From NCBI GenBank assembly GCA_017628395.1, contig JAGBZD010000042.1, positions 6,386 through 70,385 of the forward strand: a stretch of DNA of 64,000 nt, in the 5' to 3' direction. The position numbers and the translations under genes were made by a program. Below are positions 4,020 to 52,910 of the stretch, piece by piece (the stretch's first letter is position 1; every line of letters starts with the position of its first letter). This DNA comes from Paludibacteraceae bacterium (GTDB lineage: Bacteria > Bacteroidota > Bacteroidia > Bacteroidales > Paludibacteraceae). A model generated the notes under the pieces. It was given only the letters and a program-made list of their open reading frames with translations, searched no databases and was not told the origin of the DNA.

Positions 4020-4092
4020 TACCGTTTATCTACCGTGTATGTACCGTATATCAACCGTATATCTACCGTAGTTGATAGCGAATTGATAGCGG
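4020..4092. repeat. 11-bp phased tandem array: 5 x TACCGTnTATn, then 2 x (G/A)TTGATAGCG(A/G)
   Basis: TACCGT or AACCGT starts at 4020, 4031, 4042, 4053 and 4064. GTTGATAGCGA lies at 4071 and ATTGATAGCGG at 4082. Confidence 0.85.
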
Positions 4093-33793: not shown

Positions 33794-34870
33794 TTAATGC
33801 TTGATAATCTTCTCCGCAATCTGCACCGCATTGAGCGCAGCACCTTTTCGAATTTGGTCACCGACGCACCAGAAAGTAATACCATTCTCGTTGGCTAAAT
33901 CTTTACGAATACGACCCACATACACATCATCCGTACCACTCAAATACAAAGGCATTGGGTATGGAAATTTTGAATGTTGAATGTTGAATTTTGAATTATC
34001 TTCTTCAGAAATCTCCAAAAATGGTTTGCCGAGGTTGGCAGGATTGTCGATTACTTGTACACCTTCGGCATTGGCAAGTGCATTGCGAACTTGCTCTGGA
34101 GTGAGTGGCTCGGTAGTCTCTACCCATACCGCCTCTGAGTGTGCACGCAAAGAAGGCACACGCACACATGTAGCCGAAACAGCAATGTCAGAGTGCATGA
34201 TCTTGCGCGTCTCGTGGTACATCTTTAACTCTTCTTTGGTGTAGTCATCATCACCAAAGACATCTATCTGCGGAATGAGGTTATAAGCCAATTGATAAGC
34301 AAACTTTTGGTGCTTTACTTCCTCTCCATTTATGGCTTGACGGTATTGCTCCTCCAACTCTGCCATTGCACTGGCGCCAGCGCCCGAAGCCGACTGATAA
34401 GAAGAAACATGCACACGCTTGATATGCGAGAGTTCCTCGATCGCCTTCAAGCAGACTGCCATGATGATGGTAGTACAGTTGGGATTGGCAATGATGCGCT
34501 TGCCACCCTCTTGGAGAGCTTGCGCGATGTCATCCGCATTGAGTTCGGGAACCACCAAAGGTACATGCTCGTCCATGCGGAAAGCAGAAGAGTTGTCAAT
34601 CATGATTGCTCCATAGCGAGTGATGTCCTCTGCGTATTCCTTAGATACAGAGCCACCTGCTGATACAAAAGCTATATCTACGCCTTTGAACAAGTCGCCA
34701 TGACAAAGTTCTTCTACGGTGTATTCCTTGCCGCAGAAAGTATATGTAGTGCCTGCACTGCGTGCAGAGCCGAAAAGTCGAAGTTGAGTAATGGGGAACT
34801 GGCGTTGAGCCAAAATAGTAAGGAGCTCTTGTCCTACTGCGCCTGATGCGCCTACGATAGCTATTGTCAT
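33794..34870 (-). CDS. asd: aspartate-semialdehyde dehydrogenase (with an in-frame insertion at 33965-34033)
   Basis: [13 protein letters not shown], the NPNCTTI active-site Cys, SYQSASGAG and [18 protein letters not shown]. Confidence 0.9.
33969..33997. repeat. heptamer tandem array (T/G)TTGAAT x4 inside asd
   Basis: TTGAAT starts at 33970, 33977, 33984 and 33991. Confidence 0.85.
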
Positions 34871-34872
34871 TG

Positions 34873-34907
34873 TTTATAGTTGAAAGTTTATAGTTGAAAG
34901 TTTAAGG
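34873..34907. repeat. 14-bp tandem repeat GTTTATAGTTGAAA x2 plus a partial unit
   Basis: Begins 3 nt upstream of the asd ATG. Confidence 0.85.
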
Positions 34908-34960: not shown

Positions 34961-35155
34961 TTAAAGAAGAGTGATTGTCAATTCCTCTGCCTCCTCAAAA
35001 GCAACTTTACCTTCGCGAGCCAACCAGCCCAAAGCGAGGTTCAAGTCGTCGTTTTTCAATTTTGTAGCTTTCTTCAAAGCTTTGAGTGTGAGAGCACCAC
35101 CTTGTAATGCATTCCAGATCAAACCTGCGTTCTCACCAATTTTAGTTGTAATCAT
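34961..35155 (-). CDS. small winged-helix protein (DUF2582-like)
   Basis: The 64-aa sequence IGENAGLIWNALQGGALTLKALKKATKLKNDDLNLALGWLAREGKV matches my recollection of this wHTH family. Confidence 0.6.
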   Translation of the reverse strand: MITTKIGENAGLIWNALQGGALTLKALKKATKLKNDDLNLALGWLAREGKVAFEEAEELTITLL

Positions 35156-35212: not shown

Positions 35213-35261
35213 GGTTATTGGTTATTGGTTATTGGATATTGGATATTGGGTATTGGATATG
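35213..35261. repeat. heptamer tandem array GGTTATT x3, GGATATT x2, GGGTATT, GGATATG
   Basis: Seven contiguous units spanning the fabF stop codon. Confidence 0.9.
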
Positions 35262-37786: not shown

Positions 37787-39563
37787 CGGATGTTAGAATT
37801 GTGAATATAGTTTGACCATTATTGAGATATTGCGCCGAATGTTTTTCGTTCAATCGCGTCATCAAATCGCGCATCTCCACATCGCTCAGGCTTTTCCCCA
37901 CAGGTATTGCCATGCGGTCTGCCAATGCCAGCGCCATAGCTTCTTGCCATTGTTGGGCAGCGCTTGCGCCCGTGTCTTGCACTTGGTGAATCACCTGCAA
38001 GAGGGTGTCGCATGGATTAGTTTGTCCCAACTGAATAGGAACAGCCGAAATGGTATAAGCATTGGGCGACAACTGGTCTAAAGCAAATCCTATGGTCTGC
38101 AAATCCTGTTGCAAGGATTGCAGCGTCAAAACATCTTCGTTGGACAATTCAATCACCTCTGGAAACAACAACGACTGCGATATACCCTTTTGCTCTCGCA
38201 GTTGCTCCAATAGTTCTTGATACAAGATGGCCATATGCGCACGATGCTGATGAACCAACATCAACCCTTTGTCGGACGGCAGAACAATATACTTGTGTTG
38301 CCATTGCATCAACGCTATGTTTTCCGTTATTTCGGGCAATGCAAACAGCTGTTGGTCAGCCTGCACCGCCGTAGGTTCGGGCGTTGGCATCGCATATAGC
38401 TTCTCCCAATCCATTGCTGCTGAACGCGCTTGCGGATTGGCTTTTTGCTTAAAGGGATTATACGACGGATCCACCTGCAAACGCGGCATAGCAATCGTAG
38501 TAGGTTGCTTTACGGGCTGAGGCATCTCAATATGCGTTTCGGAGGTGAAGTCCAACGAAGGCGTGATATTAAACTTGCCCAATGCCTCTCGTACCGCAGC
38601 CAGCAATATCTGGAAAATCACTTGCTCATCGGCAAACTTGATTTCTGTTTTCGTAGGATGGATATTGACATCAATAGCGTCAGGTTGAATGTCAAAATAG
38701 ATAAAATACGATGGATTGTGGTCGGCAGTCAGCAAGCCCGAATAGGCAGTCTGAATGGCTTTGTGAAAATAGGGATGACGCATATATCGCCCATTCACGA
38801 AGAAGTACTGCTGACTATTCTTGGCTGCCATTTCTGGTTTGCCTACGAAGCCCGAGATATTAACGACTTCTGTATTTGCCAGCACATCCACCAAATGGCT
38901 TGTGAAAGGTTTAGAACTGTGTCCAAAGATGGCTTCTATCCGCTGCTTTGTGGAGCTGATAGGCAACTCGGAGAGTATTTCGTCGTTGTTTACAAGTGTG
39001 AATTGCACTTGTGGATTGACCAAGGCAATGCGATAGTACTCGGTGGTGATGTTTCGCATTTCCGTTTGGTCTGTTTTGAGGAATTTTCGTCGTGCAGGCA
39101 CATTGTAGAAGAGGTTTTTCACGCGGATATTTGTCCCCACAGGACACTGCACCACTTCCTGCTTTATGACCTCAGAGCCAGCTATCTCAATGTGTGTTCC
39201 CACCTCATCTTCGGGTCGTCGCGTAGCGACTTCCACATGTGCCACTGCACAAATACTTGCCAACGCCTCGCCTCGAAAACCCATCGTGCGCAACTGAAAC
39301 AAGTCAGCCGCCTGCGTAATCTTAGAGGTAGCATGGCGTTCGAATGCCATACGGGCATCCGTAGGGCTCATACCCTTGCCGTTATCAATCACCTGCAAGA
39401 GGGTTCTTCCCCCATCCCGCACCAAGATTCGGATATGCGTAGCCCCTGCATCCAGGGAGTTCTCCACCAACTCTTTCAGACAAGAGGCTGGACGCTGAAT
39501 CACCTCACCAGCAGCAATCTGGTTGGCTACATTATCGGGAAGCAGATGAATAATATCGCTCAT
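37764..39563 (-). CDS. mutL: DNA mismatch repair protein MutL
   Basis: IHLLPDNVANQIAAGEVIQRPASCLKELVENSLDAG and GFRGEAL motifs. Start at 39563 (ATGA overlap with the upstream small ORF). Confidence 0.9.
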   Translation of the reverse strand: MSDIIHLLPDNVANQIAAGEVIQRPASCLKELVENSLDAGATHIRILVRDGGRTLLQVIDNGKGMSPTDARMAFERHATSKITQAADLFQLRTMGFRGEALASICAVAHVEVATRRPEDEVGTHIEIAGSEVIKQEVVQCPVGTNIRVKNLFYNVPARRKFLKTDQTEMRNITTEYYRIALVNPQVQFTLVNNDEILSELPISSTKQRIEAIFGHSSKPFTSHLVDVLANTEVVNISGFVGKPEMAAKNSQQYFFVNGRYMRHPYFHKAIQTAYSGLLTADHNPSYFIYFDIQPDAIDVNIHPTKTEIKFADEQVIFQILLAAVREALGKFNITPSLDFTSETHIEMPQPVKQPTTIAMPRLQVDPSYNPFKQKANPQARSAAMDWEKLYAMPTPEPTAVQADQQLFALPEITENIALMQWQHKYIVLPSDKGLMLVHQHRAHMAILYQELLEQLREQKGISQSLLFPEVIELSNEDVLTLQSLQQDLQTIGFALDQLSPNAYTISAVPIQLGQTNPCDTLLQVIHQVQDTGASAAQQWQEAMALALADRMAIPVGKSLSDVEMRDLMTRLNEKHSAQYLNNGQTIFTILTSDEVQKRF

Positions 39564-52855: not shown

Positions 52856-52910
52856 ACGCACTATTCACGCACAATACACGCACAATAAACGCACAATAAA
52901 CGCACTATTC
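52856..52910. repeat. 11-bp phased tandem array, 5 x ACGCAC(A/T)(A/T)T(A/T)(A/C)
   Basis: ACGCAC starts at 52856, 52867, 52878, 52889 and 52900. An extra unit lies at 52836. Confidence 0.85.

Follow-up and report, generated by a model that had tools for sequence, protein, structure and literature searches.

Long simple sequence repeats are tandem arrays built from units of 5 to 11 nt. They are limited to particular bacterial lineages, heptanucleotides are their commonest class, and polymerase slippage has been proposed for them (Mrazek, Guo and Shah 2007, via PMC4679880). As that survey is relayed in PMC4679880, units whose length is a multiple of three are the likeliest to be found in coding regions.

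Heptamer arrays are represented by the cyanobacterial STRR and by the TAACTGA heptamers of Beggiatoaceae, cyanobacteria, and a few Bacteroidetes, in both of which a limited number of unit families recurs at many loci (PMC4679880). Strains differ in these arrays mostly by 7-nt increments (PMC4679880). The arrays are overwhelmingly intergenic, and the cases that fall in open reading frames (ORFs) mostly concern hypothetical proteins. Some TAACTGA arrays nevertheless occur within ORFs, oriented so as to avoid stop codons, and give 7-residue LSVISYQ repeats on translation; one of these is part of a surface loop of the beta-prime subunit of RNA polymerase (PMC4679880).

A heptanucleotide repeat with a regulatory consequence is found in neuO of the E. 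coli K1 phage CUS-3, where an AAGACTC coding repeat allows full-length protein to be made only if the number of units is divisible by three (PMC13001214). The repeat lies at the 5' end of this dispensable, capsule-modifying gene and comprises 3 to 53 units, most commonly 20; 42 of 64 complete genomes carry the gene out of frame (PMC13001214).

Here, we describe a translated heptanucleotide array within asd, the gene for aspartate-semialdehyde dehydrogenase (Asd), from a member of the Paludibacteraceae. Asd is an essential enzyme that is needed for the synthesis of diaminopimelate, lysine, threonine, and methionine, and its loss would block all of these. The window, by which we mean the whole stretch of 64,000 nt that was analyzed, belongs to a 2.41-Mb draft assembly (G000) of 129 contigs that is 81% complete. 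A scan of the genome collection placed "Paludibacteraceae bacterium" metagenome-assembled genomes in the cecum, colon, rectum, and feces of cattle, buffalo, deer, and sheep. In window coordinates, the features of the gene are as follows.

33794-34870, minus strand: asd, aspartate-semialdehyde dehydrogenase, 358 aa, an ORF with a TIGR01296 match.
33965-34033, minus strand: lineage-specific loop insertion L280-F302, 23 codons, without a counterpart in any solved Asd.
33998-34033, minus strand: nonrepetitive half of the insertion, a diverged form of which is common to relatives with AATTCAA arrays.
33965-33997, minus strand: heptamer array of 4.6 to 4.7 AATTCAA units, two of them CATTCAA, encoding residues N292-F302.

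The product is a member of NCBIfam family TIGR01296 (asd_B), with a score of 424.9 bits for a cutoff of 324.2. Both Semialdhyde_dh domains (PF01118 and PF02774) are recorded for it, the match being interrupted solely at the insert. C132 of the NPNC motif and H244 of the RAHSE motif, whose catalytic roles are established for the family, are invariant in an alignment of 46 Asd sequences. The gene closes an acpP-fabF-DUF2582-asd run as its last enzyme gene, is present in a single copy in G000, and was detected in all 23 of the high-quality relatives searched.

The first-pass annotation of the window, which was made from the sequence alone, had proposed that asd contains an in-frame insertion of about 23 codons, and comparison with orthologues bears this out. 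The closest solved structure, that of Porphyromonas gingivalis Asd (8juo; E value, 1e-132), aligns to residues 1 to 278 and 300 to 356 with no aligned residues between them, and HMMER alignments to every solved Asd break at this one identical place. All solved Asd structures read D-x-P, two to four residues, and then YPMPL, and outgroup Bacteroidales read D-E-P-E-N-K-I-YPMPL at the same site; neither group holds a segment of equivalent length. The invariant residues D275 and Y304 are separated by 28 residues in the window Asd versus six in 8juo and the outgroup Bacteroidales, which amounts to a net gain of 22 residues counted from D275 to Y304. The insert is not an assembly artifact, a concern raised in the first-pass annotation, because dozens of metagenome proteins from independent assemblies contain it, as does a 99%-identical protein (P0002) that was assembled three separate times.

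Part of the insert is, as had been claimed, a heptamer array like the intergenic arrays of the window. Tandem Repeats Finder (TRF) reports it at 33966-33997 with a period of 7, 4.6 copies, and 92% matches, and the units run AATTCAA, AATTCAA, CATTCAA, CATTCAA, AATT on the gene strand. The last 11 residues of the insert are this array translated through all three frames: three 7-nt units make 21 nt and hence a 7-residue peptide repeat, (AATTCAA)3 yielding NSKFKIQ. The reverse orientation contains TGA once per three units, and therefore the sense orientation alone can persist and be translated. The array is longer than chance would produce and is a heptanucleotide long simple sequence repeat; two 2.4-Mb genomes simulated with a second-order Markov model of this genome contained no period-7 arrays under the same TRF settings.

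Array sequence differs even between close strains. The 99%-identical P0002, represented by three assemblies, carries a perfect 4.7-unit array, from which the window departs by an identical A-to-C change at the equivalent position of two adjacent units. These paired variants, seen in this assembly alone, fit a single point mutation followed by unit-level turnover. The AATTCAA family is also found at about six other loci of this genome. Assembler contigs from public runs end inside the asd array, where contigs from other loci with the AATTCAA unit pile up; in run X4, a depth spike and loose ends occur at 33966 and 33998.

The asd loop was compared at the DNA level in 43 species representatives and at 29 metagenome loci. 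Species with Asd flanks that are 84 to 94% identical carry at least six unit types at this one site.

AATTCAA arrays: 3 to 4 units, in L034 and L038.
CCAATAC, CCAATAG, or CCAATCA arrays: 4 to 7 units, in L031, L035, L046, L044, and L063.
CAACTGY arrays: 6 and 9 units, in L040 and L047.
CTCAACT or CAACACT arrays: about 3 units, in L033, L115, and L122.
GAAAAGT-like arrays: units not counted, in NGKVKSENGKV forms.
AAATGGT-like arrays: units not counted, in KMVNGTLSNGKY forms.

Clade members with an expanded loop mostly carry heptamer arrays, and others retain a short form such as TKSNGTF. Among distinct inserts of at least 36 nt, 27 of 44 have their best self-similarity at a lag of 7. The best 120 protein clusters, which are 85 to 100% identical to the query and 340 to 384 aa in length, owe most of their length spread to the loop, where the insert that separates the DxP motif from PYPMPL comprises about 4 to 24 residues; in the 381- and 384-aa forms, the loop is as in shorter clusters (P0047 versus P0058), and the extra length lies elsewhere. 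An Asd tree was built with the loop columns removed (63 tips; a single gene; 26 of 60 inner branches open). It places at least 13 changes between short and expanded loops and at least 19 changes of unit family across the 63 tips, counts that are rough minima and that recombination could contribute to or inflate. Long-array species are intermixed with short-form TKSNGTF species on this tree. The array is thus not frozen by selection, one of the options initially offered for it, as relatives differ in the number of units, in unit sequence, and in unit family.

A comparison of unit number in close alleles revealed three-unit steps among the assembled sequences. Four pairs of alleles, of which three were aligned as DNA, are exactly three units (21 nt, 7 aa) apart. 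L040 and L047 have 6 versus 9 units, and L035 and L046 have 4 versus 7. The TLNSQY and TLNTKLSTLNSQY forms show a 7-aa difference, the short TLNSQY form already holding about 1.7 units. Finally, the P0045 allele equals the P0025 allele less exactly three AATTCAA units, which appears as a clean 21-nt gap; P0045 was assembled in two separate samples, and P0025 is found on 14 contigs.

The gain or loss of a single unit would shift the reading frame, as was correctly noted at the outset, because 7 nt is not a multiple of three. When 29 metagenome loci were read with frame-independent anchors, none was out of frame, in consensus assemblies in which rare variants are hidden. Similarly, no out-of-frame allele occurred among the 43 species representatives or any other allele recovered, all of which are in frame.

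We consider it likely that a permissive loop of Asd has been colonized by a tolerated heptanucleotide long simple sequence repeat, with frame-breaking changes in length being purged by selection. In a ruminant-hindgut clade of Paludibacteraceae, the short turn that leads from the end of the D275 strand to PYPMPL would have become a site at which 7-bp arrays arise, alter, and get replaced. Replication slippage or related processes, which we infer from assembled alleles, would alter the number of units. In an essential, single-copy gene, the surviving changes would be those that keep the frame, that is, three-unit steps or compensated changes. The genome carries about 150 heptamer arrays, that of asd among them, and some 40% of these would sit in linkers and loops of ordinary genes.

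Analysis of the whole assembly evidences the excess of heptamers. Counting arrays of at least 3.5 copies, TRF detected 136 with period 7, compared with 9 for period 6 and 31 for period 8. Arrays with longer units of 10 nt (66 arrays) and 11 nt (70 arrays) are also strongly over-represented. Period 7 is the leading class genome-wide, at an abundance that marks these arrays as long simple sequence repeats. Heptamer arrays with 3 or more copies number 149; 64 of them are located well within open frames of 150 aa or longer, and the ten array-bearing frames checked out of these 64 are all genuine conserved genes. They encode Tex, an S9 peptidase, a MiaB/RimO-like radical-SAM enzyme, an M20 peptidase, a pyridine-nucleotide oxidoreductase, a DUF5686 protein, a subtilase, a THUMP-like protein, an RluA-type pseudouridine synthase, and a GntP permease. 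Judged by array position relative to Pfam bounds, at least four of the ten (Tex, the MiaB/RimO-like enzyme, the M20 peptidase, and the oxidoreductase) have the array in a linker or interdomain gap, and in the RluA-type enzyme it forms an insert within the domain. For the MiaB/RimO-like gene (G000:C41:33614-34978), the linker between UPF0004 and the radical-SAM domain is hypervariable in 30 genus members (L208-L237) and holds heptamer and 8-mer arrays of many unit families, with turnover as in the asd loop. Heptamer arrays occur at a similar density, 6 to 9 per 100 kb, in 4-kb asd neighborhoods of other Paludibacteraceae, and none was present in 29 kb belonging to other families.

Like the repeats of the Mrazek survey, these are short-unit tandem arrays beyond chance that are abundant in some lineages only. 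They depart from that survey, as far as it is conveyed in PMC4679880, in that about 40% of the heptamer arrays here lie in open frames, including that of an essential enzyme, and ruminant-gut Paludibacteraceae are not among the lineages it describes there. Among the papers searched, none dealt with in-frame heptanucleotide arrays in Bacteroidales. What sets these arrays apart from the known repeats is the share of arrays in housekeeping genes and the replacement of one family by another at a single orthologous site in an essential enzyme.

Unit sequences provide a second perspective, since the arrays of G000 fall into few families. The 147 arrays with a 7-nt consensus unit reduce to 52 canonical units, compared with about 136 expected from random heptamers of this genome, and the largest family has 14 members, compared with a null maximum of 5. 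The limited number of heptamer families at many loci resembles STRR, a likeness rather than membership, as both units and taxon differ; unlike STRR, the arrays here comprise many unit families, occupy many housekeeping genes, and include one orthologous site with different families in different species. Moreover, three unrelated loci (G000:C41:34554-34584, C42:8866-8896, and C121:17915-17945) hold exactly the same 31-nt array, in which the order of the variant units is fixed; within one mismatch, the array is found at five loci, and the sister genomes G062 and G012 contain more exact copies. This array encodes EVKGERLEVKG in both the MiaB/RimO-like enzyme and the S9 peptidase. The idea that sister genomes each fixed their own variant of it was rejected; both variants coexist in G062 and G012, and the difference at the orthologous site is therefore a mere point change.

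Unit types known from the asd genes of other species recur in other genes of G000, and CTCAACT, AACGGAA, and GCCAATC arrays elsewhere in this genome yield the same peptides. TCAACTG arrays were found only in the two genomes that have them in asd, except for one match with two mismatches to a CTCAACT-type array (G047). AATTCAA reaches its highest abundance in the two genomes whose asd arrays of this unit are perfect, and CCAATAN shows only a weak trend toward genome abundance matching the asd family. These distributions are suggestive of a tendency for the asd unit family to be one that is abundant in its own genome, related genomes not being independent samples. Local slippage alone does not explain the small number of families, the identical 31-nt arrays, and the match between asd family and genome abundance. 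We tentatively raise the possibility, which we hold to be less probable than its negation, that arrays are propagated between loci by family-specific copying (ectopic conversion or templated insertion) and thereby re-seed permissive sites such as the Asd loop.

The same evidence, namely the shortage of canonical units with its oversized largest family, the 31-nt array shared among loci, and the way TCAACTG and AATTCAA track the asd arrays of their genomes, would also be expected of an in-frame selfish or mobile mini-element. Here the array, or the whole insert, would have arrived ready-made by copy-and-paste or ectopic conversion. We regard this as unlikely. The first-pass annotation had mentioned the footprint of a small insertion element, and that description suits the array half to the extent that it belongs to a multilocus family; it fails for the nonrepeat half: a blastn-short search of the entire genome with the insert recovered further copies of the array but no second copy of this half. 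No terminal repeats, target duplications, palindromes, or shared motif were seen at array borders, and the short forms (TLNSQY, 1.7 units) resemble local seeds that have grown by 21 nt. In the MiaB/RimO-like gene, no clean empty site to set against a filled one was found for the 31-nt array in 30 genus members, the linker being variable throughout. The genomes whose unit families agree with their asd arrays are, again, related to one another.

A known case of repeated DNA within proteins offers a further comparison. Rickettsia palindromic elements, the subject of work by Ogata et al. in 2000, are reportedly 100 to 150 bp long, of fixed sequence, and located in frame in protein-coding genes. 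Like these elements, which are tolerated in surface-exposed parts of essential proteins, the asd insert contains repeated DNA that is tolerated in frame in an essential protein and adds a peptide with no evident function. Unlike them, its repeat is a tandem array, neither a palindrome nor fixed borders were seen, and it does not belong to that class.

Turning to the protein, an AlphaFold2 (AF2) model made from the 46-sequence alignment has a mean pLDDT of 85 and a pTM of 0.84 and compares with 8juo_A at TM scores of 0.86/0.92. According to the secondary structure of the model, the insert sits between strand 271-273 and the PYPMPL motif. Residues 286-299 have pLDDT values below 50; the loop is predicted to be disordered and is presumably surface exposed. 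Natural alleles have 2 to 32 residues at the loop, a range that is stronger evidence than the model and indicates that the site is permissive. Because the loop is predicted to be disordered and 2 to 32 residues are tolerated, the peptide most likely has no function of its own, i.e., it is neutral.

The loop could instead be adaptive, with its peptide selected for regulation, interaction, or solubility and its variability reflecting diversifying selection. Such selection would accommodate the LGKP start of the insert, which is conserved over many alleles with differing arrays, including those of relatives carrying CCAATNN arrays, as well as the persistence of the insert in lineages with Asd proteins that are about 85% identical (L001 and L038). 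Nevertheless, the sequence, length, and composition of the peptide vary freely, and its variable part is the exact translation of a heptamer array whose units also occur in noncoding DNA and, elsewhere, in both orientations. Species with the short form are neighbors of long-form species on the tree, and the predicted structure is disordered at this very place. An adaptive role is, in our judgment, decidedly improbable.

The first-pass annotation had also offered a contingency-type (phase-variation) switch, in which the gain or loss of one 7-bp unit would toggle asd reversibly in a subpopulation. A coding unit that is not a multiple of three is indeed the architecture of the heptanucleotide switch in neuO (PMC13001214), and unit number does vary among relatives. 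However, contingency loci have both ON and OFF alleles in nature and a dispensable product, the loss of which is advantageous under some conditions, and asd displays neither property in the assembled alleles and genomes. neuO is out of frame in most complete genomes, whereas asd, a core gene, was never out of frame among the recovered alleles, and its tract comprises only 4.6 units, two of them variant. Similar arrays are found in many unrelated cytosolic enzymes. Since asd is single copy and its product is needed for diaminopimelate, the OFF state would be lethal rather than adaptive, as knowledge of the pathway implies; with every allele in frame and an OFF state that blocks the pathway, a switch is very unlikely and the least credible of the explanations considered.

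A permissive loop colonized by tolerated repeats makes asd a natural experiment in how far junk can accumulate in an essential, highly conserved enzyme, with the Asd loop accepting 2 to 32 near-arbitrary residues. The 7-nt unit renders the filter of selection readable from the alleles, in which three-unit steps alone are seen, and asd alleles thus offer a clean separation of mutation from selection at bacterial microsatellites. In these gut lineages, length differences between housekeeping proteins would mostly be repeat noise and should not be mistaken for domain gain, frameshift, or assembly error. If copying between loci is real, then a repeat-spreading mechanism acts within coding DNA, and the Asd loop samples whichever family is expanding in the genome. 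Spread of this kind would also open the mechanism behind bacterial heptamers, for which an explanation has been lacking since the cyanobacterial STRR were described, to testing in a gut bacterium.

Loss of mismatch repair was considered as a cause of the arrays and rejected, as MutS, MutS2, and MutL are present. A mutL homologue, a 636-aa open frame, lies on the minus strand of the window at about 38580-38912 (G000:C28:44965-45297), and MutS and MutS2 are encoded at other sites of the genome, which thus has mismatch repair in spite of its repeat load. The period-10 and period-11 arrays also form recurring unit families, of which 4020-4070 and 52856-52910 are examples in the window.

Two further arrays lie close to asd.

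34872-34905, minus strand: 14-nt array in which two heptamers alternate, 2.4 copies, directly next to the asd start codon.
35216-35260, minus strand: CCAATAN heptamer array detected by TRF, encoding the fabF tail and stop codon.

The fabF-tail array lies 1.2 kb upstream of the asd array, and CCAATNN arrays are found within asd itself in the sister species L031, L035, L044, and L046. It is identical in the near-identical strain L111 and absent in L112 (1140-1300), where the 3' end of fabF is altogether different and the Asd protein is identical. These sequences suggest a recombination breakpoint between fabF and the DUF2582 gene. The latter encodes 64 aa, is located between fabF and asd on the minus strand (34961-35155), and is conserved in L111, L204, and L206. 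In run X4, one contig links the asd loop border at 33961 to the fabF-tail array at 35230; this join likely arises from a relative whose asd CCAATA array resembles the fabF tail of the window, and it illustrates how such arrays can mislead mapping and assembly.

The array at 34872-34905 ends two bases before the asd ATG and thus occupies the position of any translation-initiation signal. It is unchanged in the near-identical strains L111 and L112. At the corresponding position upstream of asd, the relative L206 carries a ACGCACAATAC-type 11-mer array instead.
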